Shown: positions 2,129 to 64,000 of the stretch, in pieces | Position numbering within the stretch: the first letter of the stretch is position 1 | Layout: every line of letters begins with the position of its first letter | NCBI GenBank assembly: GCA_023134135.1 | Contig: JAGLVB010000005.1 | Span: 19,715-83,714 of the forward strand | Length of the DNA stretch: 64,000 nucleotides | Origin: Candidatus Aenigmatarchaeota archaeon | GTDB taxonomy: Archaea; Aenigmatarchaeota; Aenigmatarchaeia; QMZS01 | Direction: 5' to 3' | Program-made: the position numbers and the translations under genes | The notes under the pieces: generated by a model | The model's database searches: none | What the model saw: only the letters and a program-made list of their open reading frames with translations | What the model was told of the DNA's origin: nothing

Positions 2129-2132
2129 AATA

Positions 2133-3119: not shown

Positions 3120-3169
3120 CTTCCACCCGTTCTCATAATTATTAGATTATGACCTATTGTCCTCATAAT

Positions 3170-42674: not shown

Positions 42675-42744
42675 GAAAATCAGCATATTTTAGCTTAACA
42701 ATTTCTTTTGAGTATCATATCAATAGTTATCCTGTTTTTATATT

Positions 42745-43026
42745 ATGAAAATAGAAAAAAAGGTTCAGCAGGAATATTTTGAAAATGTAACAGAAGGCAA
42801 GAAACGTTTTGAGGTTAGACTGGCGGATTTTAAGTACAAGTCTGGTGATACTCTGGTTCTAAAGGAACAAAAACAAGGAACTAAAGAACTAACTGGGAGA
42901 AAAATAGAATGTGAAATATTATACAAATTCAATACAAAAGATATGGAGAAATTTCATACAAAAGAAGAAATAGAAAAATATGGATTTGCAATACTGGCGA
43001 TAAGAAAAAAGTTCAAATTTACTTAA
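42745..43026 (+). CDS. ASCH/DUF3850-like small PUA-fold protein, copy 1
   Basis: MKIEKKVQQEYFENVTEGKKRFEVRLADFKYKSGDTLVLKE resembles the DUF3850 pattern. Confidence 0.6.
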   Translation: MKIEKKVQQEYFENVTEGKKRFEVRLADFKYKSGDTLVLKEQKQGTKELTGRKIECEILYKFNTKDMEKFHTKEEIEKYGFAILAIRKKFKFT

Positions 43027-43097
43027 GTTACAATTTATAACTTTATTTATGAAAATAGAAAAACACTCGTCGTTCCGACGGTGCATTGTTTTATATT

Positions 43098-43358
43098 ATG
43101 AAAATCGAAAAGAAGACTTGGCCTGAACTCTTCCAGAAAATTCTCGATGGAAAGAAAACCTATGAACTACGTCTTGCGGATTGGGAATGCAGTGAAGGGG
43201 ACATTCTGGTTTTGAAAGAATGGAATCCTGACACAAAAAAATACACCAGAAGAATCCTTGAGAAAAAAATAACTTATGTCCTTAAAACAAAAGATTTAAA
43301 ATACTGGTCTAAAGAAGAAATAGAAAAGTTCGGGTTTCAGATAATTTCTTTCAGATAA
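43098..43358 (+). CDS. ASCH/DUF3850-like small PUA-fold protein, copy 2
   Basis: MKIEKKTWPELFQKILDGKKTYELRLADWECSEGDILVLKE. Paralogue of copy 1. Start at ATG 43098; the track gives 43086. Confidence 0.6.
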   Translation: MKIEKKTWPELFQKILDGKKTYELRLADWECSEGDILVLKEWNPDTKKYTRRILEKKITYVLKTKDLKYWSKEEIEKFGFQIISFR

Positions 43359-43394
43359 AAAAGATTGCATGAAGGCAATTATTTTCTGAACATT

Positions 43395-49749: not shown

Positions 49750-51036
49750 ATGGAACTAAAAAAACCTGAAAGAGCGCAGACAATAAAATATTACTCAGAT
49801 GAAAAACTGCAGGAAATTATGTGTAAATTTGGGATGAACCGGGAAGTTGTTGCCCGTAATGTTGATGGGATGTATTTCAAAAGACCCACAACAATATTCT
49901 ACCCAAATGATATTGCAAGATTAACTGAACGAGGAGCAGTCTCCTTTCACGGCTCTGTGGAACGATGGAGGAATCCTTTGCTGATAGACGAAAGAAACTA
50001 CGACGAATTAAGAACAGGCTTTGATTGGGTAATTGATATTGATTCAGGCCTGGGTATGGAAGAAGCAAACATCGCAGCTTGTCTTATAAGAAATTTTATT
50101 GAAAAATACAACTTAAAATATATCCTGAAATTTTCCGGGAGAAGGGGATTTCATTTCTGCGTATTCTGGGAGAATTTTCCGGCGGAAGAAATCCTTGATG
50201 ACAAAGAAATCAGATTATTATACCCAGTACTTCCAAAAACCCTGTCAAATTATCTCAGGGAACAAATTAAAGAAGAACTCTGGGATAAACTTGTGGAACA
50301 CGCCGGGTCAATAAAAGAACTGACAAAAGGCGAAGCCATAGAAGATAAAAATCCTTTCAAATATGTGGAAGTTGAAAAAGATTGGAGTTCAAGACATCTA
50401 TTCAGGATGCCTTATTCTCTCCACGAAAAAACAGGTCTTGCATCTATCTTAATTGAACCTAGCAAACTGGAAAAATTCAAAGTTGAAGACGCAAAAATGG
50501 AAAATGCGGTTTTCAAAGAGATTAATACTGAAGGAACTGATGCAAAAAGATTAATAGTTGATGCCTATGACTGGTTTGAAAGAAGGAGAGAAAAACCAAA
50601 AGAAACTCAGGCACCCACTCTAATGGAATCCTACAAAGATAGGGTTGAAGAAGGGAACTTTCCCCCCTGCATTCAGAAAATTCTTGAAGGAATTCCTGAC
50701 GGAAGAAAAAGAAGCGTGTTCACACTCACAACTTTCTTAAGGAGTTGCAACTGGCCAATGCTTGAAGTTGAAAAAACCGTTATGGATTGGGGAAAGAAAG
50801 TCGGGTTAAAAGAAAATTATGTTAGAGCCCAGTTAATCTGGCACAAAAAACAAAACAAAAGAATCCTTCCCCCAAACTGCAGCAATGGATCTTTCTACAG
50901 GGATGTTGGAATATGCCAACAGGTTCCTCTCTGCGAAAAGATAAAAAATCCAATTAATTTCGCAATTATTAAACAAAGCGGGGGGAAGAAAAAAAGGAAG
51001 AGGAGAAAAAAGATTTTACCCAAAACATCTTCATAA
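49750..51036 (+). CDS. priS: DNA primase, fused PriS catalytic domain and PriL-type Fe-S C-terminal domain
   Basis: AEP motifs WVIDIDS, FSGRRGFHF and HLFRMPYSLHEKTG. The C-terminal FPPCIQKIL...RSC...PPNC...GICQQVPLCEKIKNPINF resembles the PriL-CTD cysteine pattern. Confidence 0.8.
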   Translation: MELKKPERAQTIKYYSDEKLQEIMCKFGMNREVVARNVDGMYFKRPTTIFYPNDIARLTERGAVSFHGSVERWRNPLLIDERNYDELRTGFDWVIDIDSGLGMEEANIAACLIRNFIEKYNLKYILKFSGRRGFHFCVFWENFPAEEILDDKEIRLLYPVLPKTLSNYLREQIKEELWDKLVEHAGSIKELTKGEAIEDKNPFKYVEVEKDWSSRHLFRMPYSLHEKTGLASILIEPSKLEKFKVEDAKMENAVFKEINTEGTDAKRLIVDAYDWFERRREKPKETQAPTLMESYKDRVEEGNFPPCIQKILEGIPDGRKRSVFTLTTFLRSCNWPMLEVEKTVMDWGKKVGLKENYVRAQLIWHKKQNKRILPPNCSNGSFYRDVGICQQVPLCEKIKNPINFAIIKQSGGKKKRKRRKKILPKTSS

Positions 51037-51093: not shown

Positions 51094-52389
51094 TTATCCA
51101 TCAATCTCTTTCCCGAACAACTCAATAAATTCTTCCTCTTTTCCTTTCTCGATTTTACCGCCTGCGGCTTCTTTGTGACCTCCGCCACCGCCACCAAGTT
51201 TCCCGCAGATTCTAGAAACTATTTCGTCCAAATCAATCCCGGGCATCTTTGACCTCGTGGACAACTTTATTCCATCTTCCGCATGGGCAAGCCCAACAAC
51301 AATCTTCTTATCAATAGTCCCATTTATCAAAATCGATGCTATGGTCCCAATCATATTTTCATCCACTTTATCTTTTGCATTCAGGAACAAAATATTTTCG
51401 GTCTTGGGGAATTTCTTCATATTCCTTTCAGCCCACGCCAGATAACCGGAAAGTTTTCTCCCGTATTCCCGCCTTACTTCAGTGAGTATTTCCATATTTC
51501 CGTCCAGCATCTCAAAGACTTCTTCATATTTTTCAAGTCTCCCAAATGAATTGAATATTGTTGAGAACTCAAGAGCATCCATAAACTCTCTTGGTTGGTT
51601 TGTAAGAATGTAAATGCTTGAAAAAATATTTGCGGGCTCCTCAATATTATTGCTTATCCTTTCTTTGATTATCTCGAGGGATAACTTCTTTTTCTCTTCT
51701 TCTGAAAGATCATAATAACTTTTAATTTTGCCATTGTGATGCAACTCTATATCCAACTCTGATAGAAACTGAACAACTTCAGAATGACCATTCAATGGGA
51801 AAAAATTCGCCCTGGACAAAGTCTCGTGTATTGGTCTGTTCACATGCCCGAATATATTCAGACCCGGCTCGGTTTTTAATCTCCCAATTTTTTCAGCCAA
51901 CACCTTTACTTTTTTATTCTCATCAATATCAATCTGGTGGTCTCCGATAGAACCCACCACCGCGTAATCTATAAGTTCATCATATTTCCCGAGTTCAGAA
52001 ACAAATAAATAACAAACTCCGGCCCCGCATAATTCCTTACCTTCAAGACAGGGATTTACCTGAATTATATTTTCAGGAATCTTAACTTTCTCAGGAACAT
52101 GGTGGTCGAGAATAACAATCTCTTTATCTTTTGGAAGCAGACTTAAATATCCGGAACCCAAATCAGAAAATATTATCAACTCAAAATTGCCATCATCAAA
52201 TTCTTTTTCAATCTCTTCAATTATCTCCGAAGAAATTTCCTTTACAATTTTTATTTTTATATCCTTGTTCTCTTTCTTCAGGGCGTCAGATAAAATCTTC
52301 GCTGAACAAAGACCATCGCAATCATAATGGGAAACAAGCAATATTTTATTTGCATTTTTTACCTTGAGAACAGCTCTGCTAAAGTCCAT
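51094..52389 (-). CDS. RecJ/GAN-like DHH-family phosphoesterase
   Basis: HYDCDGLCS, ILDHH, and the DHHA1 motif GGGGGGHKEAAGG. Start at MDFSRAV; the track gives 52428. Confidence 0.8.
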   Translation of the reverse strand: MDFSRAVLKVKNANKILLVSHYDCDGLCSAKILSDALKKENKDIKIKIVKEISSEIIEEIEKEFDDGNFELIIFSDLGSGYLSLLPKDKEIVILDHHVPEKVKIPENIIQVNPCLEGKELCGAGVCYLFVSELGKYDELIDYAVVGSIGDHQIDIDENKKVKVLAEKIGRLKTEPGLNIFGHVNRPIHETLSRANFFPLNGHSEVVQFLSELDIELHHNGKIKSYYDLSEEEKKKLSLEIIKERISNNIEEPANIFSSIYILTNQPREFMDALEFSTIFNSFGRLEKYEEVFEMLDGNMEILTEVRREYGRKLSGYLAWAERNMKKFPKTENILFLNAKDKVDENMIGTIASILINGTIDKKIVVGLAHAEDGIKLSTRSKMPGIDLDEIVSRICGKLGGGGGGHKEAAGGKIEKGKEEEFIELFGKEIDG

Positions 52390-52415
52390 TTTAATACTTA
52401 AATAATTTATATAAT

Positions 52416-52700
52416 ATGGGAGACCCAATTTTTTACAATGGTAAAAAAGTAGCCGATTACAATACTCGTCATATTAAAAGTGGTCTTAAATCCGGTTATC
52501 AGACTATTTACATATTTGAAGGTTTAAAATCTTTAAAAAAAATTCTGAACGCGCCAGATATAGATTATGTCCAATATGGTGGTTGGGAACCTGAAAGTGA
52601 AATAGGTAAAGAATCTATACCTGTTTTCATGGAGAAATTGGGAAATAGTTTAGCAGTCTATTTTTCACTTGAAGCCCAGCTGGCAAACGAAAACAGATAA
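52416..52700 (+). CDS. Hypothetical protein
   Basis: 94-aa ORF. No motif recognised. Confidence 0.35.
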   Translation: MGDPIFYNGKKVADYNTRHIKSGLKSGYQTIYIFEGLKSLKKILNAPDIDYVQYGGWEPESEIGKESIPVFMEKLGNSLAVYFSLEAQLANENR

Positions 52701-52725: not shown

Positions 52726-53172
52726 ATGGAAGTCCTGATGATTGTATTAATTACTATTACTGTTACCTTACTGCAAACATTAATCCAGAAAAAATTAATG
52801 GATGTTGATTTGGTCAAAGCCCTGAAAACGGAAATGAAAAAAACAAATCAGGCTATGAAGACTGTGAGTAAAGAAATGAAAAACACTAAGGAGGGCGAAG
52901 CGCCAAATACTAAAAAACTAAATGAATTAATGTCGAAAAGCGTTGGAATCCAGAAGAAAATGATGGGGCAGACAATGAAACCTATGATGATATCCAGCCT
53001 TGTTGTTTTTGTTGCTTTTTATATAATACCAATGTTCTTTAGCGGAGCTGTTTTGAACCTTCCTTTTTCCATTCCTTTTATTGGAAATCAACTTGGATGG
53101 TTGGGAATATTTATACTTACTTCCATCATTTCAGGTCTTATTTTCAGGAAAGTTTTTGATGTTGGGATGTAA
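52726..53172 (+). CDS. DUF106 family membrane protein (archaeal YidC/Oxa1/EMC3-like)
   Basis: TM1 followed by LQTLIQKKLMD, a lysine-rich coiled segment, then QTMKPMMISSLVVF and further TMs. The pattern matches the MJ0480-type family, from memory. Confidence 0.6.
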   Translation: MEVLMIVLITITVTLLQTLIQKKLMDVDLVKALKTEMKKTNQAMKTVSKEMKNTKEGEAPNTKKLNELMSKSVGIQKKMMGQTMKPMMISSLVVFVAFYIIPMFFSGAVLNLPFSIPFIGNQLGWLGIFILTSIISGLIFRKVFDVGM

Positions 53173-53273
53173 TTTGATTTAGTTGTCCTGAAAATGGAAG
53201 AATTTATCATGCTATTGGTTAAAATAAAATTGTTCCTTTCAGACCAGCTACAAACAAAATTTAGATAAATCCC

Positions 53274-53499
53274 AGTTCACGCAAAAATGAACGTGAACTC
53301 AAAGTTCATCTGGAAATGAAGTTCATATTTACTGCATTTGGAGGGACACCTTTGTTTCACGTGGAACCCTCAACTTCACGTCTCGTACATGCGAATAATC
53401 CCCATATATTACTATAAACACCCAAATACTGAAGTTCACACCTCATCTCAAACAGGTTCACAAATCAAAAAAAAACTTCCTGTGAAGTTCATGTGAACT
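53274..53499. promoter_or_regulatory. Array of AGTTCAC(G/A)-type motifs in direct and inverted orientation
   Basis: Nine exact GTTCA/TGAAC pentamers start at 53275, 53288, 53294, 53304, 53321, 53434, 53456, 53487 and 53494. Variants are the dyad GTTTCACGTGGAAC (53354-53367) and ACTTCACG (53373-53380). All lie in a 368-bp intergenic gap. Confidence 0.6.
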
Positions 53500-53540
53500 T
53501 AATTCCCTTAAATAGCGTAATTTATTAGACAATTATTAAT

Positions 53541-54242
53541 ATGGAACACAAATTTTATGACTTAAATGCGTCTGTAAATATTGAGAACTTATTGGAGAGA
53601 GCAGAAACTCTTGGATTAACCGGCATCTGTCTGGTGATGAATTCCAATGAAAATCTGGAAGAATATTTAACAAAAATTCAGGAGCTTAAGAAAAAAACAG
53701 ACCTTGATTTGATTACTGGAGTTCTCATTCAAGAAGATCAAAACAACATCCTGAAAAAAGCAAAAGAATTGAGAAGAAAAGTTGAAGTAATACTCGTCTC
53801 AGGAGGGAATTATGAAATAAACCGGCTGGCATGTTCTTCGGATTATATTGATATTTTATGCCACCCTGAAAAAGGCAGGCACGATTCCGGGTTGGACCAT
53901 ATCTGCGGCAGGGAAGCAAAAATCCACAACACAATCATAGAATTAAATTTTAGGGAACTATTGTTATCAAAAGGGATGGAACGGATAAGAGAATTAAACA
54001 AAATGAAAGAGATTCTCAGATTATGCCTCAGACTAAAAACAAAATTTATTGTGAACTCCGGGGCAGTTGAATTATTTGAATTGAGAAGTGGAAAAGAACT
54101 GTCAAGTTTATCTTTCTGCCTTGGAGCAGAAATGTATGATGCCTTAATTGCAAACTCAGAACTCGCTGAGAAATTAATTTTTAAGAACAGGGAAAAACTA
54201 AAACAACCGCTGGACTCTGTTTATGTTGAACATGGAAAATAG
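53541..54242 (+). CDS. rnp3: RNase P protein component 3 (Rpp30)
   Basis: PHP/TIM-barrel-like pattern (FYDLN start, GLTGICLV, DILCHPE). Followed by the Pop5 gene, as in many archaea. Confidence 0.7.
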   Translation: MEHKFYDLNASVNIENLLERAETLGLTGICLVMNSNENLEEYLTKIQELKKKTDLDLITGVLIQEDQNNILKKAKELRRKVEVILVSGGNYEINRLACSSDYIDILCHPEKGRHDSGLDHICGREAKIHNTIIELNFRELLLSKGMERIRELNKMKEILRLCLRLKTKFIVNSGAVELFELRSGKELSSLSFCLGAEMYDALIANSELAEKLIFKNREKLKQPLDSVYVEHGK

Positions 54243-54591
54243 AACCAGGACACTGCCCTCTTCCTGCAGAGAGAAAAAAAGATACCTCATATTCAGAGTT
54301 ATCTCTGACCGGAAAATAGAATTTGAAGAATTGATTAAAGCTATTTTTAGCAACACAATTAATTTATTCGGGAGCTTAAGATTCGGACAAACAAATTTCA
54401 GATTCCTTCAGGAATTATATGACTCCAAACAACAGATATTTGTATTGAAGTGTCTTCCAAAAGATGTTGAACTTGTGAGACTTTCCCTTGCATTGATACA
54501 TGAAATCTATGGGAAAAAAGTCTGCATTATGTCGCTTGGAGTTACGGGAACAATTAAATCAGCGAGGAATAAATATTTGGATAGTATTTAA
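54232..54591 (+). CDS. rnp2: RNase P protein component 2 (Pop5)
   Basis: REKKRYLIFRVISD start and the C-terminal VTGTIKSARNKYL pattern typical of Pop5. Confidence 0.7.
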   Translation: MENRTRTLPSSCREKKRYLIFRVISDRKIEFEELIKAIFSNTINLFGSLRFGQTNFRFLQELYDSKQQIFVLKCLPKDVELVRLSLALIHEIYGKKVCIMSLGVTGTIKSARNKYLDSI

Positions 54592-54607
54592 TTAAAAACA
54601 TAAAATT

Positions 54608-55159
54608 CTAGGGGCATTCTACAGGACAATTAATAGCATCTTCTCCAATCGCGGAATCGCAATATCCATTGCCGCAACAATAAGTTATATTGCAATCCAA
54701 AGCACAACCTTCGGAACATTCTTTTGGGTCGCAATTAGCGTCCCCGCAAAAATTGACATAGCCCACAACAAATATATCCCCTGACTCGCAGTCACCTATT
54801 ATTTTTATCTCTGAATCATCAGGCGGCTTCACAGCCAACTCAAAAGTAACAGTTTCCCCAATATCCAACACATTATCCCCGGAATAAGTATAAACTAAAT
54901 GGTTGCCTGAAACATATATAAGAAAATTATCCAGATTTAATTCAGTGCCTCCGGTATTCACAATAGTTATATTTCTTGAAACAACTTCCGAAATCATAAA
55001 ATTTGACATCTGATTGCAATATTTAATTCTTTCTTCCTGTTCCAAACTCTCGCCTGTTTTATATAAAGTGGTCTGGTAAAAAACCAAAGTCAATGAAAGA
55101 ATAACAATCACAATACTTATCAAATAAATTTCTCCAATTATAACATTAACGCCCCTCAT
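54608..55159 (-). CDS. Pilin-like protein with C-terminal cysteine-rich module
   Basis: MRGVNVIIGEIYLISIVIVILSL N-terminus. The C-terminal 48 aa hold 12 Cys, including CGNGYCDSAIGEDAINCPVEC. Confidence 0.55.
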   Translation of the reverse strand: MRGVNVIIGEIYLISIVIVILSLTLVFYQTTLYKTGESLEQEERIKYCNQMSNFMISEVVSRNITIVNTGGTELNLDNFLIYVSGNHLVYTYSGDNVLDIGETVTFELAVKPPDDSEIKIIGDCESGDIFVVGYVNFCGDANCDPKECSEGCALDCNITYCCGNGYCDSAIGEDAINCPVECP

Positions 55160-55207
55160 TATTTAATCTGTATTATGTTATACAAATCATTAAACATAGT
55201 TCCAGAA

Positions 55208-56431
55208 TCATTTAATATACTTCTCGAATAAATTAAGCCAGTCAAGCAATAATCTGGTAATTAGGAAATTATCCTTTATATGCAGATAACCTTTAGACCC
55301 AAATTCTATTCTTAATGAATCATCTTTCAACAATTTTATCACACTCTCGCCAAAACCTTTTATATCATCAGGTTCATGGAGATACCCATTTTCTGAATCA
55401 ATTACCTGTAAAGGAATTCCACCTACCTTTGAGGCTACAACAGGAGTTCCTTTGAATAAAGCCTCTGACACAGTTAACCCAAATCCTTCTTTTATTGATT
55501 TCTGGATTACAACTGAAGAAGCTCTTTGCAGAGCATTAACAAGAGCCTCATTTTCAACAAGAATCACTTTAATGTCCCTCTTATACTTGCTTTTTTCCGC
55601 CTTTTTCTCAACCTTTTTAAATAAACTCTGCCCTTCAGGATCATCTGAAGCAAGAGAACCCAGCAGAACCAATTGACAGTTTACTCTTTTCCTCACATAT
55701 TCAAATATCTTAATAACTCCGATTGGATCTTTCCATTTATCAAACCTTGACACCTGAGAGATAATTGGTTTGTTGTCATAAATTCCATATTTCCCTAAAA
55801 TTCTATCAACCGCTTTCTCTGATAAAAATCTGTTTTTTTGCGACAAAGGGTCTATTGCAGGATAAATAATATTCTGCGGTATTGATAAATTTTTCCTGTA
55901 TTCTTCCTTTGAAATAACCACACTGTCATATTTTTCAATAAAGGGTTTCAGATAATTCCACACTTTTAGATTTGGATGGGATATGTCAATGTGAAGCCTG
56001 AATATCCAGGGTTGCTTCTTTTTGTAAAAATTAATCAAAGGCAATGGTTGCGGGTCATGAACAATAACCAAATCATGATGGGTATGCTGATTGCATAAAT
56101 GGGTGAATGTGGAAAATCTCCTGTTTGTCTCGCAATATAGATCTTTCTTTCTGTCGGATAAATTTATTTTTTCTCCCTGCAAAGCATTATGAAATTTTTT
56201 GGTAATTCCAAAAAAATCCGGAGTGCCATGCAAAATTCTCCACCCAAAATCTATTCCAACTTCATCAAATAAAAATACAAGATTATTCAAAAGATCTGCG
56301 ACACCTCCGCCCTGATAAGTTGAACTGATACAAACAATATGTTTATCTGAAAACTTTTCCGCCTTTGAATAAATTTCATCCATCACTGCCTTACCAACAA
56401 TATTTCGATAATCTTTCAAATTCCTAACCAT
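55208..56431 (-). CDS. GT4 glycosyltransferase, trehalose synthase (TreT)-like
   Basis: N-terminal STYQGGGVADLLNNLV...GWRILHGTPDFFGITKKFHNALQG resembles TreT-type enzymes, from memory. C-terminal GT4 motif EGFGLTVSEALFKG. Confidence 0.6.
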   Translation of the reverse strand: MVRNLKDYRNIVGKAVMDEIYSKAEKFSDKHIVCISSTYQGGGVADLLNNLVFLFDEVGIDFGWRILHGTPDFFGITKKFHNALQGEKINLSDRKKDLYCETNRRFSTFTHLCNQHTHHDLVIVHDPQPLPLINFYKKKQPWIFRLHIDISHPNLKVWNYLKPFIEKYDSVVISKEEYRKNLSIPQNIIYPAIDPLSQKNRFLSEKAVDRILGKYGIYDNKPIISQVSRFDKWKDPIGVIKIFEYVRKRVNCQLVLLGSLASDDPEGQSLFKKVEKKAEKSKYKRDIKVILVENEALVNALQRASSVVIQKSIKEGFGLTVSEALFKGTPVVASKVGGIPLQVIDSENGYLHEPDDIKGFGESVIKLLKDDSLRIEFGSKGYLHIKDNFLITRLLLDWLNLFEKYIK

Positions 56432-56482
56432 CTATTATAATAGTTATTTTTATATAATAAATTCTTTGATTTTTATTTAATT

Positions 56483-56547
56483 GGTTAATTATTCTGAAAA
56501 ATCACGGGTAAATATTCTCAGAATTATGGTTAAATATTTTTAGAATT
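56483..56547. promoter_or_regulatory. Three direct repeats GGT(T)AA(A/T)TATT(C/T)T..AGAA(T/A)T spaced 21-24 bp
   Basis: Copies start at 56483, 56507 and 56528, 50-115 nt upstream of the TreT-like start (56431, minus strand). Confidence 0.4.
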
Positions 56548-56569
56548 TCAACTAAGTAATTTCATAAGT

Positions 56570-57634
56570 TTAACTAAGAGTTCTCAGAATTTCACCAAAT
56601 TCCTTGTTGGTTCTTATCCCTGTGTCTAAAAAATGCGTTTTGCATCCCTCTAATTTTTCAAGCAAATATTTTTTCTTTTTTATCTGTTTCCCATTCCATT
56701 TGCAAATTTTGTGAATATCATAATACAGGAAATAATCCTGCTCAGCTCTTATTTGATTTATAAATTCCAAGAGATAACCAAATTTTTTATTTGATTCTTC
56801 TTCCAGTTTTACGCAGAATTCAGGGGAAGCAAAATTTCCTGTAAAGATTTTGCCAATTACATTCAACCTATTCCCGCAATTATCGCACTTATCATTCCAA
56901 CCTGTTTTGCGAAAACCGCATTTCTGACAGTAAGAAAGATAATCAAATTGTTCAAGCAATGAATCCGTCCTTTTGCAACCGCGGGTTACTCTCCCAAAAA
57001 TCCTGAAATAATGCCTCCGGCAATAAGAAAAAATTGGAGTGAAAGCCATATCATATCTTGAAAAAATCTTCATTGCAGAAGAGATAAATATTCTAAGACC
57101 TAACTCTTTATAAAAATCAGTCTTCAAACTTCTTATCCCATATCTCCTTAAGCAAGTCAGTGGCGAAGTGCCGCATAGAGGGGCTGTGTCTGTTGCGGTT
57201 AAAGCAACAATTCCTTTGTTCCTAATTGATTTCGCGGCAGAGTCAAGAAAGTAAATTGATGAGCCAAATGGGTCAAGGTCAATAAAATCAAATAAGTTTT
57301 CGAGCAACAATTTGTTTGCATCTTTATTTTCTATTCTTACTTCAAGTTCATTGAGTTCTGCGTTTTTCTTCATAACCTTTGCGGTGTTTGGATTCTGGTC
57401 ATTCAAAACAACTTCCGAATCTTTCAGCACGGATTTATATCTCAATCCCCTCGCTCCTGAAGCAGCAAGGCAGTCGCATATTTTTTTTGGTTTCAGGACT
57501 GAAATTATGAGTTCAGAAAGATCTCGGTCAAATTTCATCTCCGGATTATAGAAAACACTCATCTTTTTTGTTAATTCTTCATCAACAGGAACTTTGAGTT
57601 TTATATCTCCCTCCTTGACTGTCTTGAGTTTCAT
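56570..57634 (-). CDS. trm1: tRNA (guanine26-N2)-dimethyltransferase Trm1
   Basis: VFYNPEMKFDRDLS, DPFGS, and the C-terminal CQKCG...CDNCG zinc motif. Confidence 0.85.
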   Translation of the reverse strand: MKLKTVKEGDIKLKVPVDEELTKKMSVFYNPEMKFDRDLSELIISVLKPKKICDCLAASGARGLRYKSVLKDSEVVLNDQNPNTAKVMKKNAELNELEVRIENKDANKLLLENLFDFIDLDPFGSSIYFLDSAAKSIRNKGIVALTATDTAPLCGTSPLTCLRRYGIRSLKTDFYKELGLRIFISSAMKIFSRYDMAFTPIFSYCRRHYFRIFGRVTRGCKRTDSLLEQFDYLSYCQKCGFRKTGWNDKCDNCGNRLNVIGKIFTGNFASPEFCVKLEEESNKKFGYLLEFINQIRAEQDYFLYYDIHKICKWNGKQIKKKKYLLEKLEGCKTHFLDTGIRTNKEFGEILRTLS

Positions 57635-57729
57635 AAATTATTAATATTCAATTTTCTTATCATGCACACTATATTGATTTTATCTCCTTTTCGGGTTCCT
57701 TAATAAAAATATCCATATAATTCTTCTCA

Positions 57730-58482
57730 TTATTTTTCTTTGAAATATTCTAAATTTTTCCTTATTTTAAGAACAAGTTTTATGAATTTCTCAGAATCCA
57801 AGAGTTTTAAATTTCTTTCTTCAGGCAAATCAATTTTTAAAATCTTCTTTATTTTTCCAGGTCTTTTTGTCAATATTGCGACTTTGTTGGAAAGAAAAAC
57901 CGCTTCCGAAACATTATGAGTAACAAAAATTACTGTTTTTTTTGTTTTTCTCCAGATTCTGTTTAATTCTGTATTCAGTTTTAGCCTTGTTGGTTCATCC
58001 AAAGCCCCAAAAGGTTCATCCATTAACAAAACTTCCGGCTCGCAGATTAATGCTCTTGCAATCGCCACTCTCTGCTTCATCCCCCCGCTTAAATCCTTTG
58101 GATAAACATTTTCAAATTCTTTCAGGTCAATTAGTTTTAAAAGTTTTTTTGCTTTTTTATATGATTCTTCCTTTGCAACTCCTTTAATTTCCAAAGGTAA
58201 AATAACATTATCAATAACATTTCTCCATTCCAATAAATTATGTTCCTGAAAAACATAACCAACTTCAAAATCTTCGGGTTTTAGTATTTCTCCATTTGTT
58301 GAATTTATTAGTCCTGCGATAATTTTCAGGATAGTTGTCTTCCCGCAACCGCTTGGTCCAACAATTGAAAAAAAGTCCCCGCTCTCAACTTTAAATGAAA
58401 CTCCATCCAGAGCCTTAACTTCCTTTTCCTTCGAGGTATACGTTACCCCTATATCCTTAACTTCTAACAACATCTTTTTCAC
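57730..58482 (-). CDS. ABC transporter ATP-binding protein (NitT/TauT family)
   Basis: GPSGCGKTT Walker A, LSGGMKQRVAIARAL signature, LLMDEPFGALD Walker B. Confidence 0.9.
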   Translation of the reverse strand: MKKMLLEVKDIGVTYTSKEKEVKALDGVSFKVESGDFFSIVGPSGCGKTTILKIIAGLINSTNGEILKPEDFEVGYVFQEHNLLEWRNVIDNVILPLEIKGVAKEESYKKAKKLLKLIDLKEFENVYPKDLSGGMKQRVAIARALICEPEVLLMDEPFGALDEPTRLKLNTELNRIWRKTKKTVIFVTHNVSEAVFLSNKVAILTKRPGKIKKILKIDLPEERNLKLLDSEKFIKLVLKIRKNLEYFKEK

Positions 58483-59236
58483 CTTTATTTTTATACCATG
58501 GAATCATCAAACTTTCCAAAACATCAATAATTAAATAGAGAACAATACCTAAAACAGTTAATTGTAGGATTGCCACGAAAACCTGCGGTGTATTCATTAA
58601 ACCCGCAGCATAAATCGTCAAATAACCCAATCCTGAATTTGCTCCGATGAATTCACCCACAACCGCCCCGATAACCGCTAAAGTTATTCCTGTTTTGAAA
58701 GCGGCAAATAAGACCGGCAAAGCCGCAGGAAGTTCAACAAATCTGAAAATCTGCAACCTGGTTGCCTTGCAAATTTTCATTAAATCCAGCAGGTTTTTAT
58801 CAACACTCCTTATCCCAACAATTGTATTTACCAATATTGGGAAGAAGACAATCAATGCAACAATAACAATCTTTGACAAAGGACCAAAACCAAACCAGAT
58901 TACAATTAATGGAGCCAAAGCGATTTTAGGGGCTGTCTGGAGAGCAACCAAATAAGGAGACAGGGTTTGCTCCACCTGTTTTGATTTTGCAATAAAATAA
59001 CCCGGGATTAATCCAAGCAAAACGCCAATTATAAACCCTGCGATAGTTTCGTACAAAGTAACTAAAGTGTGATTTAATAATAAACCGCTTTTAAGCAAAA
59101 AATACCACTCAATAAAAACAGTTTCCGGTTGGGGCAGGATAAATTCAGGGAATTTAAAAATGAAAATTACAGACTTCCAGAGAAGGACAAATAAAATAAA
59201 AACCAAAATCTGCTGGAAGATTATTTTTCTGTTCAT
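58457..59236 (-). CDS. ABC transporter permease (NitT/TauT family)
   Basis: Six TM segments and an EAA-like loop (KICKATRLQIFRFVELPAALP). Confidence 0.85.
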   Translation of the reverse strand: MNRKIIFQQILVFILFVLLWKSVIFIFKFPEFILPQPETVFIEWYFLLKSGLLLNHTLVTLYETIAGFIIGVLLGLIPGYFIAKSKQVEQTLSPYLVALQTAPKIALAPLIVIWFGFGPLSKIVIVALIVFFPILVNTIVGIRSVDKNLLDLMKICKATRLQIFRFVELPAALPVLFAAFKTGITLAVIGAVVGEFIGANSGLGYLTIYAAGLMNTPQVFVAILQLTVLGIVLYLIIDVLESLMIPWYKNKGEKDVVRS

Positions 59237-59319
59237 AATAAATTACCAATTCTATATTCATCAATTATCATTGTGCATTTTTCTGGTCAATATATAAAAA
59301 GAAAATAAAAAATTTAGAA

Positions 59320-60333
59320 TCATTTTGGAACAAATTCGTCTGTATACATTTCTGAGATTGGGGTTTTCTTGGTTATTACTCCTAAATCGAATAGTGTGTC
59401 TTGTGTCATTGTCCATTGGTTTTTATTGAATTGACCTAATGAATATATCTTTGGTTGAATAGAATCCTTTGCAAATAGTTTCCAAATAGCTAATGATATA
59501 TCTCTCTTTTTTGCTGCTTCTGGATTTAACTTTATATAAATATCGATTGCTTTCTCTGGATTATCAACAGCATATCTTAATCCTCTATCAGTTGCCCGCA
59601 CAAATTTCCTGATTAATTCCGGATTGTTTTTCAGTGTTTTTTCGTTGGTTATTACAACATTAGAGACTAAATCTGCATTGTAATTCTTTGCATACATAAT
59701 ATTGCTTTCTATTTTCATATTATCAAGTATACTCTTTTCGGTTATATGCCCTCCTATTGCATCAGCTTTGTTTTCCAATAATGTAGGTATGATTCCAGCA
59801 CCTACGGGAACAAAAGTTACACTATCTAAGTCCACACCAGATTTATATAAAATAGCTTTAGCAGATAAATAAGGTGGACTGCCAATTCCGGGCACTGCAA
59901 TTTTTTTCCCAGTCAAATCTTTTGGTTCAGTAATCCCAGAACCTTTCTTTGCCAAAATATTGAACATATTTGTATGTTCAATCTGATATACTGCGATTAT
60001 AGGAATATCTTTAGATTTAGCTGTAATTATTGAACAACCAGATGCATATCCAAGTTGAATATTGTTTGTGCCAACTTGTTCTATTGGTCCCATTGATCCT
60101 TTTGGACTATAAGTCATTTCGACATTTAATCCTTCATCTGCATAATATCCTTGATCTATTGCGCAGTAAAACGGTGTCCATATTGGTATTGCAATGAAAG
60201 GCATCATCACTGTAACATCTTCCGTCTCCGAAGTTGTTGTATTTCCGCCATAGAAACCAATTCCTATCACGGCAATTATTAGAACCGCTAAACTGATTGC
60301 TCCGTACATCAATGTATTGTTTTTCTTTGCCAT
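59320..60333 (-). CDS. ABC transporter substrate-binding protein (NMT1/THI5-like), paralogue 1
   Basis: N-terminal anchor MAKKNNTLMYGAISLAVLIIAV and an SsuA/THI5-like body. Upstream of the permease and ATPase genes. Confidence 0.7.
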   Translation of the reverse strand: MAKKNNTLMYGAISLAVLIIAVIGIGFYGGNTTTSETEDVTVMMPFIAIPIWTPFYCAIDQGYYADEGLNVEMTYSPKGSMGPIEQVGTNNIQLGYASGCSIITAKSKDIPIIAVYQIEHTNMFNILAKKGSGITEPKDLTGKKIAVPGIGSPPYLSAKAILYKSGVDLDSVTFVPVGAGIIPTLLENKADAIGGHITEKSILDNMKIESNIMYAKNYNADLVSNVVITNEKTLKNNPELIRKFVRATDRGLRYAVDNPEKAIDIYIKLNPEAAKKRDISLAIWKLFAKDSIQPKIYSLGQFNKNQWTMTQDTLFDLGVITKKTPISEMYTDEFVPK

Positions 60334-60366
60334 ATTAATATTTGAATTTAATGGTTATATAACCGT

Positions 60367-60386
60367 GTGGTGAGGGAGACCACCAC
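60367..60386. promoter_or_regulatory. Palindrome GTGGTG-N8-CACCAC immediately upstream of the TATA-like box of binding-protein gene 1
   Basis: The minus strand reads ...GTGGTGGTCTCCCTCACCAC-ACGG-TTATATAA-(23 nt)-ATG. Confidence 0.5.
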
Positions 60387-60487
60387 AGAAATACCTATAA
60401 CAATATTTTTATTTAAATGGAGTTAAACTTTTACCCTGCTAAAATTTAATTGAGGATTCATTGAAGTTCTAAATTTATTCTCAAATA

Positions 60488-60507
60488 CCCCATCCTTTAG
60501 GTTGGGG
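60488..60507. repeat. GC-rich hairpin CCCCATCC-TTTA-GGTTGGGG preceded by AAATA
   Basis: 8-position stem with one T:T mismatch. Related copy at 60614-60633. Confidence 0.6.
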
Positions 60508-60613
60508 ATTGAAATCCACTAAAAACAAAAATACTAATGGTTAAGAAAGCGAATCACTGCGTATGATGGATATGTAAAGAGGGTGGTTAAATATTTTGAC
60601 TAATTTTTAAATA

Positions 60614-60633
60614 CCCCGTCCTTCAGGTCGGGG
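60614..60633. repeat. GC-rich hairpin CCCCGTCC-TTCA-GGTCGGGG preceded by AAATA
   Basis: Same architecture as 60488-60507, with a compensatory A:T to G:C change at stem position 5. Confidence 0.6.
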
Positions 60634-60655
60634 AACTTTATTGTTTTAAGTCAAT

Positions 60656-60677
60656 ATATACCTATTCTTAGGTATAT
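60656..60677. promoter_or_regulatory. Palindrome ATATACCT-N6-AGGTATAT
   Basis: Same dyad as the two copies at 62902-62944. Lies 31 nt downstream of the stop of binding-protein gene 2. Confidence 0.5.
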
Positions 60678-60708
60678 TGGAAAATTTAGATAAAAACTAA
60701 AAAATGGA

Positions 60709-61731
60709 TTATTTTGGAACAAATTCGTCTGTGTAAAACTGGTTCACATCTGTTTTCCTATCTATTGCGCCAGCATCAAACATCTGGTCTTGCTTCTCTG
60801 CCCACTTATCTTCTGAAGGTAAATGAAAGATTGGCTTTCCGTTTGCATCTTTGTCAAACCCTCTTTCAACCATTGATTTCCAGATTGCTAAATGCAAACC
60901 TCTTTTTTCAGCTGCTTCGGGATTGTATTTGATATAAGCATCAGTAGCTTCTTCGGGATGTTCCACAGAATATTCCAAGCCTTTTTGAGTTGCTCTTACA
61001 AATTTTTTAACTAGGTCTGGATGTTCATTAATTATTACATCGCTCGTAAAAAGATAAGTCCTTCCTATAGTTGTATAATCACTGGCACTTATCTCATTCA
61101 TTTTTCCACCGCTAATAGCTTCTGCTACAATTTTTTGAGGTAAATAAGCTGCAAAAGCATCAGCATTTCCAGATAAATGCGTTGAAATTACAGCTCCGCC
61201 AACATATAAAGGCTCTATCTGATTAAAATCTTTACCTGACTGCGTAAGCATTATTTTTGTTGCTGTAGCAATCGTTACTGTAGGACCAGGAAATGCAATT
61301 TTTTTGCCTATTAAATCATCGGGTTTGGTAATACCTAATTCTTTTTTTGAGTAGATTCCAAATAAATTTTTCTGAATAATTCTCTGAATATTTACTATTG
61401 ACATATCTTGTAATCTACCCACAAGTGCTTCGGTATCACCTGAATATCCAAATTCAACATTGCCTATAGCGATTTGTTTTGTCACGCCAACACCACCTTC
61501 CGTGCTATACTGAAAATTCACATCCAAACCCTCTTCATCATAATAGCCATTCGCAGCAGCAGCATAAAAAGGCGCATAGCCAACATTCGGCGTGAAACCG
61601 AACATCAAAGTAACTTTCTCTGTTTCTGAAGTCTCTGTATCTCCGCCATAGAAACCAATTCCTATCACGGCAATTATTAGAACCGCTAAACTGATTGCTC
61701 CGTACATCAATGTATTGTTTTTCTTTACCAT
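60709..61731 (-). CDS. ABC transporter substrate-binding protein (NMT1/THI5-like), paralogue 2
   Basis: Start set at MVKKNNTLMYGAISLAVLIIAV, matching paralogue 1. The track ORF extends to 61812. The C-terminus YTDEFVPK is shared. Confidence 0.7.
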   Translation of the reverse strand: MVKKNNTLMYGAISLAVLIIAVIGIGFYGGDTETSETEKVTLMFGFTPNVGYAPFYAAAANGYYDEEGLDVNFQYSTEGGVGVTKQIAIGNVEFGYSGDTEALVGRLQDMSIVNIQRIIQKNLFGIYSKKELGITKPDDLIGKKIAFPGPTVTIATATKIMLTQSGKDFNQIEPLYVGGAVISTHLSGNADAFAAYLPQKIVAEAISGGKMNEISASDYTTIGRTYLFTSDVIINEHPDLVKKFVRATQKGLEYSVEHPEEATDAYIKYNPEAAEKRGLHLAIWKSMVERGFDKDANGKPIFHLPSEDKWAEKQDQMFDAGAIDRKTDVNQFYTDEFVPK

Positions 61732-61763
61732 ATTAACATTTGAATTTAGGGTATATATAACTG

Positions 61764-61785
61764 TGTGGTGGGGGAGACCACCACA
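61764..61785. promoter_or_regulatory. Equivalent palindrome TGTGGTGG-N6-CCACCACA upstream of binding-protein gene 2
   Basis: Same position relative to TATATATA and the ATG at 61731. Confidence 0.5.
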
Positions 61786-61792
61786 GTTTTGT

Positions 61793-62389
61793 TTAAATAT
61801 TTCCAAATACAATCAATCTTTCTTTTGGATTATTGACAATGGAATTTATAAAAGGCTCTTTTTTTCTTAAATTCTCCTCAAACTTTTTTTCATTAAAAAC
61901 CACTCCATCTATTTGCAGATTTAAAATAATAGATATTTCTCTGCAAAACTTTGAAATTAATTTTTTATTTGAGGTAACAAATAAAACATCCAAATCTGAC
62001 TTTTGGTTTGCTGAACCCCTTGCATAGCTTCCAAATACGAAAATATATTTGCATGAAGAAACTATTTCTTTGTTATTCCTTACAAGAGTTATAAAATTTC
62101 TGCATTTTTCATATTTTGCTGCTCTTTTTTCAAGATAGAGCTCATTTAGAACTGGGATAAGCAAATTATATTCATATCCAGAAATAAATGAATAATAAAC
62201 TTCTTTTCCTTTTCTTTCTTTTTTTAGAATCTTACAATTTACAAGGGATGTCAGGATTTTTGAACACAGGGATAAACTCATATTTAATTCTCTTACTAAT
62301 TTATGCAAATAACAATTTTCAGAAGAATAAATCTCAAACAAAATTTCTAATTTTCTTTTTGTTAACGGCAATAATTTTGTAACATTCAT
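61793..62389 (-). CDS. Winged-helix + minimal nucleotidyltransferase (MNT) protein
   Basis: N-terminal HTH-like segment (RKLEILFEIY...KILKKERKGKEVYY), then FVFGSYARGSANQKSDLDVLFV, the NTase motif. Confidence 0.7.
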   Translation of the reverse strand: MNVTKLLPLTKRKLEILFEIYSSENCYLHKLVRELNMSLSLCSKILTSLVNCKILKKERKGKEVYYSFISGYEYNLLIPVLNELYLEKRAAKYEKCRNFITLVRNNKEIVSSCKYIFVFGSYARGSANQKSDLDVLFVTSNKKLISKFCREISIILNLQIDGVVFNEKKFEENLRKKEPFINSIVNNPKERLIVFGNI

Positions 62390-62877
62390 AATAATCCCAC
62401 CATCTCATTCATCAAATTTCTAACTCTTTCTAAAATCCGTTCTGCCTGTTGTTTTGTAATTGTCTTCCAGGATATGGGTTGGTAAAGAGCTTTGTTTCTT
62501 TCCAATCTTATCCCATCAATTTCATTTAAATTTTTAAGACCGTTTATAGTCTTATCCAGTTCTTTTGCGAATTGAGCGGAAATTACTTTCTCTTTAAGTA
62601 ATGCTGTAAGCAAGCATTTGTGGTTCTTTGAATAATAACCGCAGTATTTTACAAGTAAAGCATTTGTTGCAAAAAATAAAACCTGATAACTTTTGATTAC
62701 AGACCAATAAAAATACCCATTTTCCAAATCAGAGAAAGCAGAACCAAGGTCTTTTTGCGCTCTTATTAAGTATTCTTTGAATGATTCTTTATCAATTGGT
62801 ATATATGCTTTAACTCGCTCACAATCCCTAAAATCATTTTCAATTGCTTTTTCATTTTTTGGAATATTGCTATTCAT
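62386..62877 (-). CDS. HEPN domain protein (partner of MNT)
   Basis: 163-aa helical protein overlapping the MNT gene by 4 nt. HEPN-like layout (YWSVIKSYQVLFFATNALL...NHKCL...RLERNKALY). Confidence 0.6.
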   Translation of the reverse strand: MNSNIPKNEKAIENDFRDCERVKAYIPIDKESFKEYLIRAQKDLGSAFSDLENGYFYWSVIKSYQVLFFATNALLVKYCGYYSKNHKCLLTALLKEKVISAQFAKELDKTINGLKNLNEIDGIRLERNKALYQPISWKTITKQQAERILERVRNLMNEMVGLL

Positions 62878-62901
62878 ATTACTATTTACTATTTTAGATA
62901 G

Positions 62902-62944
62902 ATATACCTGTTTTTAGGTATATATGTACCTATTTTTAGGTATA
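62902..62944. promoter_or_regulatory. Two adjacent palindromes ATATACCT-N6-AGGTATAT and (G)TACCT-N6-AGGTA
   Basis: Located 25-67 nt upstream of the HEPN start codon (62877, minus strand), overlapping the likely TATA region. Confidence 0.55.
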
Positions 62945-62952
62945 GTGAAGTA

Positions 62953-62973
62953 CCCTGTGCCAAGAGCACAGGG
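62953..62973. repeat. GC-rich hairpin CCCTGTGC-CAAGA-GCACAGGG preceded by GTA
   Basis: Perfect 8-bp stem. Same general style as the 60488 and 60614 hairpins. Confidence 0.55.
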
Positions 62974-63223
62974 CGTCCTAATAATTAAATCTCAAATAAT
63001 TTCATTTGTTTTATAATTTCTTTTCTTCCTTACCTTATTATATATTCTTCGATTACTTTTTTATTCCCTCATCCATATGCCATAACCTGTTTTTTTCTTC
63101 CATACAAAATCACTCTCTCTAATTCCTTCAAATCACGCACCTCAATTCTCGGAATCCTCATGCCCATTTTTTTATCTTGTTTTTAAACTATAAATAATGC
63201 GAGAAGAAGACCCCACAAGATAA

Positions 63224-64000
63224 TTACAACTTTTCAATTAATCCAAAAAGATTGGTGCATATTACTTTGCATCCATCAATTATTTCTTCTCTTTCTTCAC
63301 CTTTATGAAAAACAACAAAAGCGGTTTTTGGTTTATATTTTGCTATAAATGATTTCAAACTTTTGTTAATTTTGACGGAAGTCTTAACCTCTATAGGTAT
63401 AATTTCTCCTTCTTTCTCTATTATAAAATCAACCTCTGCTTTTGCTTTTGTGCTCCAGTATTTCACTGAGAAATTCTTTTTTAATAGCTCCATCAAAACA
63501 AGATTTTCAAGTATTTTATCTTCCGGCTCTGAATTAAAATTCTTTATAATGCTGTTTCTCAACCCAACATCTATGAAATAAATTTTCGGTCTTTTTGTAA
63601 TCTCCTTGAGTTTATTTGTGTAAAATGGGGGCACAGTTTTGATAACATAACTTTTTTCCAATGCATCAAGATATTTTTTTAAGGTAATAAAAGAGATATC
63701 TAATTTAGAGGATAATTTTTCATAAGATACAATATTTCCCAATCCGACTGCTAAATAATTGAGTAATTTTTCCAAACTGCCCATGTCTTCTATTGAGAAA
63801 GTTTGCATCACATCTTTTAAAATCAAGGTTTCTTTAAGATTATTAAGAATATCCTTTCTAATTTCAAAATCTTCTTCCAATACAACTTTTGGATAACCGC
63901 CATAGTTGGCGTATTCCCAAATAACTCTTTCTTTAATTTTTTCAGTCATTTCTTTCAGTTTTTTTGCTCTCAGAATTTCATGAAGGGAAAAAGGAAAAAG
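63224..64000 (-). CDS. AAA-type ATPase with DUF4143-like C-terminus (COG1373 family), N-terminus outside window
   Basis: The frame stays open upstream of the listed Met to the window edge (…LFPFSLHEILRAKKLKEMTEK…). This aligns with IYPFSFREFL in the paralogue 22729..24009. GGYPKV motif present. Confidence 0.7.
   Translation of the reverse strand, partial: LFPFSLHEILRAKKLKEMTEKIKERVIWEYANYGGYPKVVLEEDFEIRKDILNNLKETLILKDVMQTFSIEDMGSLEKLLNYLAVGLGNIVSYEKLSSKLDISFITLKKYLDALEKSYVIKTVPPFYTNKLKEITKRPKIYFIDVGLRNSIIKNFNSEPEDKILENLVLMELLKKNFSVKYWSTKAKAEVDFIIEKEGEIIPIEVKTSVKINKSLKSFIAKYKPKTAFVVFHKGEEREEIIDGCKVICTNLFGLIEKL

Follow-up and report, generated by a model that had tools for sequence, protein, structure and literature searches.

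An ORB-centred, conserved intergenic element before the RNase P protein genes rpp30-pop5 of an Aenigmatarchaeota lineage: a candidate replication origin or origin-like site

The intergenic gap before rpp30 and its motif cluster

The sequence analysed here is a 64-kb stretch (hereafter the window; 32.6% G+C) of a metagenome-assembled genome (MAG) of a Candidatus Aenigmatarchaeota, a DPANN archaeon, and our subject is the 368-bp intergenic gap (53173-53540) that separates an EMC3/TMCO1 (DUF106) gene (52726-53172, plus strand) from the RNase P protein genes rpp30 (53541-54242, plus strand, ATG at 53541) and pop5 (54223-54591). The gap holds a conserved, non-coding element of ~230 bp (53274-53500), built round a close match to the archaeal origin recognition box (ORB), that appears to be functional and to act as double-stranded DNA by binding protein, and not as RNA. 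To its left, at a distance of 0.75-3.5 kb, lie the genes of a primase (49750-51036, plus strand, 428 aa) and of a GAN-like protein of the DHH/DHHA1 type (51094-52428). A first-pass annotation, made from the letters of the window, had named these flanking genes and delimited the gap as we find them. The locus is present in identical form in GCA_030631635.1 and in one Logan assembly, and the close Rpp30 relatives among species-representative genomes are Candidatus Aenigmatarchaeota MAGs.

The gap had attracted attention because it was said to contain nine GTTCA/TGAAC pentamers within 226 bp, where well under one would be expected, and this count holds. Exactly nine copies lie in 53275-53498 (at 53275, 53304, 53321, 53434, 53456 and 53487 on the plus strand, and at 53288, 53294 and 53494 on the minus strand), against ~0.5 expected per 226 bp from the 141 copies in 64 kb (Poisson p ~3e-9), and no other 226-bp stretch of the window is as dense in this pentamer. 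When the densest 226-bp stretch of each of the 512 strand-collapsed pentamers was located across the whole window, the three most extreme clusters all fell in the gap: GTGAA/TTCAC with 8 copies (0.34 expected), GTTCA/TGAAC with its nine, and ACGTG/CACGT with 4 of its 5 copies in 64 kb (53291-53380). Of the 4 window copies of TGAASTTCA, 3 also lie there. Outside the gap, this genome seems to avoid the CACGTG core, possibly as a consequence of restriction avoidance.

Three arrangements singled out previously are all present, namely an inverted pair AGTTCACG-N10-CGTGAACT (53274-53299), a variant dyad GTTTCACGTGGAAC (53354-53367), and the dyad AAGTTCA-TG-TGAACTT (53485-53500), which was called near-perfect and is in fact a perfect 7+7 inverted repeat. 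The statement that most pentamers extend to AGTTCAC(G/A) was too strong: AGTTCAC accounts for 4 of the nine, the others being AGTTCAT (3), GGTTCAC (1) and CGTTCAT (1). The repeat unit is better described as a half-site TTCAC/GTGAA together with a palindrome of 9-11 bp, rTGAA-S-TTCAy.

An ORB-like core in a conserved framework

The most conserved block of the element (53331-53367), ACTGyATTTGtAGGGACACCyTTrTTTCACgTGGAAC, includes the variant dyad mentioned above, and consists on the minus strand of a dyad GTTCCACGTGAAAC (53367 to 53354), AAA and a G-rich string GGTGTCCCTCC. Within it, the minus-strand 20-mer TCCACGTGAAACAAAGGTGT (53365 to 53346) agrees at 18/20 positions with the motif that Ori-Finder 2 gives as common to ORBs, TCCA[CG]T[TG]GAAA[TC][GA]AAGGGGT (PMC4164010), and matches the Halobacteriaceae and Methanomicrobia ORB motifs from the same source (PMC4164010) equally well. 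It also fits the euryarchaeal ORB consensus GTTCCAGTGGAAAC-AAA----GGGGG (PMC1868953) and the TTCC...GAA that is invariant in Pyrococcus ORBs (PMC1904270). This is the unique best ORB match in 64 kb, the runner-up scoring 16/20, and 0/30 locally shuffled windows reached 18/20, so that the earlier description of the ORB resemblance as only loose understated it. In the archaea that have been studied, an ORB is bound with fixed polarity by an Orc1/Cdc6 monomer. The AGTTCAC copies are themselves no ORBs, but half-sites and palindromes placed round one at fixed distances. The earlier interpretation, an iteron or ORB cluster or a multi-site operator, is thus supported in part.

For comparison, rpp30 upstream regions were collected from relatives with Rpp30 at 41-96% identity, and metagenome contigs were searched in one DNA-pattern scan. 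In all relatives with Rpp30 identity of at least 57%, rpp30-pop5 is immediately preceded by a homologous element, 190-260 nt long, with the sole exception of one locus (L016, described below). Every one of these Rpp30-linked elements contains exactly one site of at least 16/20, which scores 17-18/20 and stands in the same place and orientation, with its dyad toward a spacer (53381-53423) and its G-rich end away from it, while related loci without the element, ~60 kb in all, yielded zero ORB matches of at least 16/20. The dyad variants found among relatives (CACATG, CATGTG) affect the dyad centre, where the ORB consensus is itself degenerate, and the ORB of L006 carries the full GGGGG string.

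The gene to the left of the element varies, being of at least five kinds: EMC3 (in the window clade and L012), an unrelated open reading frame (ORF; L005), a glycosylase (L008), an IS605-type TnpB gene (L010) and a cation ATPase (L014). In relatives at 50-53% Rpp30 identity (L017, L018, L019) the gene of a 307-418 aa protein abuts rpp30 and there is no element, and in those at 41-43% the arrangement is L15e-rpp30-pop5, with a gap of 35-43 nt and again no element. Since relatives at 53% identity or less do not have it, the element is a feature derived within a single subclade. In a set of five close relatives, variable columns number 2/28 in the ORB core, 7/71 in the motif copies and 43/159 in the other columns of the element, as compared with 31/55 variable four-fold degenerate sites of rpp30 in the same five; the whole element is under purifying selection, its motifs most strongly.

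The motif copies round the ORB are held in a regular framework, which we measured from the ORB dyad centre in 12 aligned sequences. Palindrome P1 (53316-53326; ATGAAGTTCAT, of the form rTGAA-S-TTCAy) lies at -44/-39 in all clades and retains TGAA-S-TTCA in 11/12 sequences, L005 having TGAAGTTCG. Half-site H1 (53372-53380, plus strand; AACTTCACG), 14 nt right of the dyad centre in the window, stands at +14/+15 in 11/12 sequences. It is followed by the spacer, and then by block C (53423-53440, plus strand), an A/T-rich, TATA-like stretch (CAAATAC) with half-site H2 (TGAAGTTCAC) at its end; the pattern AAAwwTw..rAAGTTCAC of this block is conserved in all clades, and H2 lies at +74 to +76, or at +66 in L014. 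The sequence of block C in L008 and L010, GTTCACGTGA, is a dyad that resembles a mini-ORB and is oriented against the ORB. Palindrome P2 (53482-53492; GTGAAGTTCAT) lies at +121 to +128, and half-site H3 (53493-53498; GTGAAC), which overlaps it, at +132 to +136; P2 and H3 together form the perfect dyad noted earlier, AAGTTCATGTGAACTT (feature 53482-53500).

These half-site positions are shared by most clades, several of which are unalignable in between. Specifically, the distance from H1 to H2 is 60-62 nt in the window clade, L006, L008, L057, L010 and L012, and 52 nt in L014 and L052, and the spacer sequence between them is unalignable between clades despite its fixed length. The distance from P1 to P2 is 164-167 bp in six lineages (the window, L006, L008, L057, L010 and L012). 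Furthermore, the central base of the palindromes switches between G and C among relatives, and the copies are not complementary at it. Fixed geometry and such G/C flips mark a protein-DNA complex, the flips being what is expected of the sites of a dimeric protein and not of RNA helices.

The metagenome scan returned 55 matches, ten of which are Rpp30-linked elements (an adjacent rpp30 was confirmed in nine, and L066 stops at a contig end), whereas three lie in other archaeal contexts of ORB type (L036, L065, L074) and the remainder in coding sequence of unrelated contigs; zero matches to the same pattern were found in viral contigs. In L036, which is Aenigmatarchaeota-like by its mevalonate kinase, the module is intergenic and precedes the mevalonate kinase gene, with two ORBs as direct copies (16/20 and 17/20) and, in the same intergenic region, TGAAGTTCA, ACTTCACATGAAG and GTGAACTTCAC. 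In L074, an ABC ATPase gene is preceded by a distant copy of the core, together with some nine TTCAC/GTGAA sites. Because L036 and L074 carry both components before unrelated genes, the ORB and the half-sites appear to travel together and not to be tied to rpp30 in all lineages. The third context, positions 700-900 of L065 (a contig of 28% GC), has an 18/20 ORB within a long inverted repeat (atgagac...gtgggacaa / ttgtccc...gtctcat), followed by three direct GGGACAACT repeats and a gene without assigned function; by its looks, this region is a replicon origin, be it of a plasmid, of a virus or of another DPANN lineage.

Origin, operator and other readings

We propose that the element is an ORB-centred Orc1/Cdc6 binding platform which overlaps the rpp30-pop5 promoter and is a candidate replication origin or origin-like site, a reading to which we give a probability of roughly 0.45. 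Under this proposal, Orc1/Cdc6 would dock on the single ORB, the weaker half-sites would be filled by further Orc1/Cdc6 copies or by a dimeric partner protein, and the resulting nucleoprotein complex of fixed geometry would serve this Aenigmatarchaeota lineage as a chromosomal replication origin, or as an Orc1 site that resembles one, with the spacer as a potential unwinding or loading zone should the element indeed be an origin. Such a mode of action may be compared to that of high- and low-affinity DnaA boxes in bacterial oriC, where one strong site is likewise combined with many weaker, half-matching sites in both orientations and at fixed spacing next to an opening region; the initiator family and the motif are different there, however, and the comparison is one of analogy only. 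The same complex probably also influences transcription of rpp30-pop5, because the right end of the element overlaps their promoter.

In favour of an origin are the ORB match, the array of short sites, the sequence-tolerant spacer, the single copy in 64 kb and the primase and GAN-like genes nearby, several of which recall the ORB-bearing origins of other archaea (Sulfolobus oriC1, Pyrococcus oriC and those of haloarchaea). The element shares with these an asymmetric 20-36 bp succession of TCCA...GAAA dyad, AAA and G-string, is intergenic, occurs once per 64 kb, and surrounds its ORB with shorter related repeats, comparable to the mini-ORBs of Pyrococcus and Methanothermobacter. Replication genes lie in its vicinity, though orc1/cdc6 is not among them. 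The tolerance of sequence change in the spacer beside the dyad also has a parallel in the DNA unwinding element (DUE) of Sulfolobus, which is largely insensitive to mutation (PMC12141716).

Several observations nevertheless weigh against this proposal. Model origins need two inverted ORBs that flank an unwinding region, and Sulfolobus oriC1 needs both ORB2 and ORB3 (PMC12141716), whereas each element here has one full ORB and, on the opposite flank, at best the mini-ORB-like GTTCACGTGA of L008 and L010; the two ORBs of the L036 module are direct copies and not an inverted pair. The repeats, too, differ from those of known archaeal origins, in that they are TGAA-S-TTCA palindromes and half-sites in the order opposite to the ORB dyad. 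A distinct AT-rich DUE is lacking, the 75 nt to the right of the dyad being 59-79% AT in loci of 65-74%, and in most relatives duplex stability is lowest in a 40-mer close to the promoter, outside the spacer, although AT-richness is a weak test in a genome of ~33% GC. As the first-pass annotation had stated, orc1/cdc6 is missing from the 64-kb window; a Walker-A screen and scans against Pfam revealed none there, or within 4-10 kb of the element in any relative, and 5-10 kb round the L036 module (L077) were free of it as well.

Nor is a skew switch seen at the site. Left of it (window 1-53000), GC skew at third codon positions (GC3 skew) is +0.27 in minus-strand genes vs +0.01 in plus-strand genes (p = 9e-6), and to the right (54600-64000) the asymmetry has the same sign, with +0.17 in minus-strand and -0.01 in plus-strand genes, although power is low there because only 10.5 kb are available; the plain GC-skew profile tracks gene orientation. 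The skew check that had been suggested thus showed, for the window, no reversal at the site, and if the GC3 bias is due to replication, this suggests that the window lies within one replichore. In addition, a fork that set out from this site would meet 10 of the 12 genes on its right head-on. Lastly, the element never separates from rpp30 while its left neighbour changes, and this tight tie to the rpp30 start, which archaeal origins do not share, fits cis-regulation of rpp30 at least as well as an origin. The origin reading of the first-pass annotation therefore gains from the ORB match and from conservation, and loses by the single ORB, the ordinary AT content, the missing orc1/cdc6 and the unbroken skew.

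A more specific and bolder form of the proposal, which we consider unlikely, would be a minimal single-ORB origin in which a palindrome scaffold with a second origin protein replaces the second ORB, and which has no coupling to orc1/cdc6 and is merged with the RNase P protein operon's promoter; with its parS-like dyad (see below), one site could then serve both initiation and segregation.

The foremost alternative, possible but in our judgement doubtful, is a multi-site operator and promoter of rpp30-pop5, on which a dimeric and possibly oligomerising transcription factor would bind palindromes and half-sites and loop or wrap ~165 bp of DNA, the likeness to an ORB being either coincidental or due to an Orc1 paralogue that is used as a regulator. 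The first-pass annotation had rated a regulator-binding array as equally valid with an origin; it keeps its place here, at a lower probability, since the element abuts rpp30 throughout and must hold its promoter. H3 ends 20-23 nt from the ATG in four clades (L008, L010, L012 and L006; 42 nt in the window clade), and as ~20 nt cannot accommodate a B-recognition element and TATA box at the usual distance, the rpp30 promoter has to lie inside the element. The left neighbour is variable, a conserved TATA-like box directly precedes H2, the palindromes with their free central base resemble dimer sites, and the spacing of P1 and P2 is constant. The ancestral L15e-rpp30-pop5 arrangement lacks the element, which would accordingly have arisen when rpp30-pop5 lost their old promoter context. 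Operators of Lrp/FFRP type offer the nearest model, with TGAA/TTCA half-site palindromes, several sites over 150-200 bp and overlap with a promoter (for example TGAAAWWWTTTCA for FL11, an archaeal oligomeric regulator), but their half-sites are spaced by 3-5 nt and not by 1 nt as here, and they have no counterpart of the ORB block. The only constant neighbours of the element are rpp30 and pop5, with no regulator gene among them, and no further copy of palindrome or ORB precedes any other gene in 64 kb, so that no regulon is visible. Moreover, the same module stands before unrelated genes in L036 and L074, a simple operator would not usually contain, 180 nt before the start codon, a 37-nt block that is conserved as strongly as the ORB, and an 18/20 ORB match is improbable by chance.

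An RNA was the outcome that the first-pass annotation named as speaking against its reading, and the search for one came out negative. Such an RNA could be a small non-coding RNA transcribed on the minus strand from the TATA-like box of block C, or a structured leader of rpp30-pop5, possibly recognised by RNase P, and we hold either to be very unlikely. A conserved length of ~200 nt beside RNase P protein genes, a minus-strand run of T5-6 after P1 in the window, L006, L008 and L010, and an RNAalifold energy that falls below that of controls with shuffled columns (plus strand z = -5.5, minus strand z = -2.8) would agree with it. However, single-sequence folding gave z of only -1.8 and -1.7 for the two strands, and the sole consensus helix pairs two self-complementary copies of the palindrome, whose centres lack covariation (G/G in the window and L010, C/C in L012). 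The T-run is missing in L012, L014 and L052, and the spacer keeps its length with no pairing. The window and 8 related loci had no Rfam match at gathering thresholds, the gap had none worth noting at E up to 10, and ARAGORN found no tRNA-like gene.

Of similarly low probability is a centromere-like partition site, in which a parS-type dyad and the half-site array would nucleate a ParB- or SegB-like complex. Plasmid centromeres typically show such mixed-orientation arrays of short repeats, and the minus-strand sequence GGTTCCACGTGAAACA (53368 to 53353) is 15/16 identical to the optimal Bacillus subtilis parS TGTTCCACGTGAAACA (PMC8299390), the 16-bp palindrome TGTTNCACGTGAAACA being matched at 15/16 over the same positions. 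Six high-GC matches of the metagenome scan (L022-L025, L030, L034) also carry (G)TTCCACGTGAAAC inside bacterial-looking ORFs, like a bacterial parS. We know of no earlier remark on the similarity between the ORB and parS consensus sequences. Against a partition site, relatives break the palindrome on one side (CACATG and CATGTG, and CATAAG in L036: TTCCACATGAAAT, TTCCATGTGAAAT, TTCCATAAGAAAT) and keep TCCA...GAAA and the asymmetric G-rich flank, which is foreign to parS. The host is an archaeon, and canonical ParABS systems are, to our knowledge, essentially bacterial. A Pfam scan limited to 19 window proteins found no ParB-like match among them, and the only ParA-like genes of the window encode ferredoxin domains and are hence of Mrp type.

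A mobile-element remnant or target, or a chance low-complexity repeat, is the least credible reading: the IS605-type TnpB gene left of the element in L010, and the break of L016 inside P2/H3 followed by unrelated, GC-richer DNA to the contig end, could suggest mobility, yet the orthologous position and purifying selection across Rpp30 identities of 57-100% largely refute both ideas, only a single copy occurs in 64 kb while viral contigs have none, and the cluster statistics exclude chance.

DPANN archaea are uncultivated and their genomes usually fragmented, and therefore skew methods and adjacency to orc1 often fail in them; our literature search found no papers on DPANN replication origins. 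A conserved, ORB-centred element of defined geometry is a concrete, testable candidate for the start of replication in Aenigmatarchaeota, and 53331-53367 with the flanking palindromes offers a short DNA probe for Orc1/Cdc6 binding. If it is an origin, it would belong to a known kind of site but show unusual traits, in that it has one ORB, is built on a palindrome scaffold and lacks a linked orc1. Otherwise, it would be an uncommon instance of an ORB-type site that has been taken over for the control of RNase P protein genes, and would bear on roles of Orc1-type proteins beyond replication. That the archaeal ORB dyad and bacterial parS are nearly identical is a minor curiosity that merits a closer look.

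Minor features and neighbouring genes

The element extends leftward mainly in the window's own clade. This left extension (53274-53309) comprises AGTTCACG (53274-53281, plus strand), ATGAACGTGAACT with two minus-strand half-sites (53287-53299) and AAGTTCAT (53302-53309, plus strand). It is present in L003, L004 and L007, and its first site is missing in L005, in which the element borders on another gene. As relatives of the L008 type have only ATTTCACATAAAAATGAAC at this position, part of the extension looks like a local duplication of ~30 nt. A further half-site (53455-53463, plus strand; GGTTCACAA) is confined to the window clade, being absent in L006, L008, L010, L012 and L014.

Between the element and rpp30, the probable core promoter of rpp30-pop5 (53507-53540, plus strand) consists of a TATA-like CTTAAATA (53507-53514) and an A/T-rich run up to the ATG, an assignment that follows from the typical near-leaderless geometry of this genome (TATA centre at about -25, ATT before the ATG); the TATA-like centre of rpp30 lies at about -30. 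Six of the last 42 nt before the ATG vary among the five close relatives. Two other candidates for the content of the gap were rejected: an RNase P RNA, with no Rfam match and no P4-type pairing by eye, and a 52-aa ORF (53338-53496), the frame of which would be shifted by a 1-nt indel found inside it among close relatives.

Two of the relatives show rearranged DNA at or near the element. L016 (GCA_023659955.1, JAGXOJ010000010.1, 1-150) is a close relative of L010, with 94% nucleotide identity in rpp30, and shares with it only the last ~35 nt before the ATG, the likeness breaking inside P2/H3 (cctgTGAAC); the DNA past the break, up to the contig end, has no Rfam match and no likeness to the other loci. 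Within the element, the sequence may thus have been interrupted by an insertion or a rearrangement, or the assembly itself may be broken. In L010 itself, the IS605-type TnpB gene (2071-3213, minus strand; OrfB_IS605 and Cas12f1-like_TNB domains) and ~580 nt of extra DNA lie between EMC3 and the element.

As regards genes nearby, the GAN-like DHH gene next to EMC3 is retained in L008, L010 and L012, and in L012 a faint Prim-Pol gene also stands beside it. The genes that abut rpp30 in the three loci at 50-53% identity lie at 1069-1992 (L017), 2683-3939 (L018) and 2222-3241 (L019), and the copies of L017 and L018 have no Pfam match, that of L019 having no recorded family; AliA/AliB genes are near in all three loci, and PolD small-subunit genes in L018 and L019.

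The window primase has weak Pfam matches to DNA_primase_S (residues 106-233) and DNA_primase_lrg (277-339), which suggests a fused PriS-PriL type, like the enzyme described for Nanoarchaeum equitans (PMC2643942). The P-loop ORFs of the window are a RadB/Rad51-like protein, a T2SSE ATPase, two Mrp/ParA-ferredoxin proteins and an ABC ATPase, and no others. The longest stretch of the window that is free of ORFs of at least 100 aa (42675-43394, 720 bp) has no Rfam or tRNA match. Finally, adjoining genes of a nucleotidyltransferase (Polbeta/NTP_transf_2, 198 aa) and a HEPN protein (163 aa) occupy 61793-62877 on the minus strand (Pfam matches from the identical locus L001), and are likely to form a HEPN-MNT toxin-antitoxin pair.

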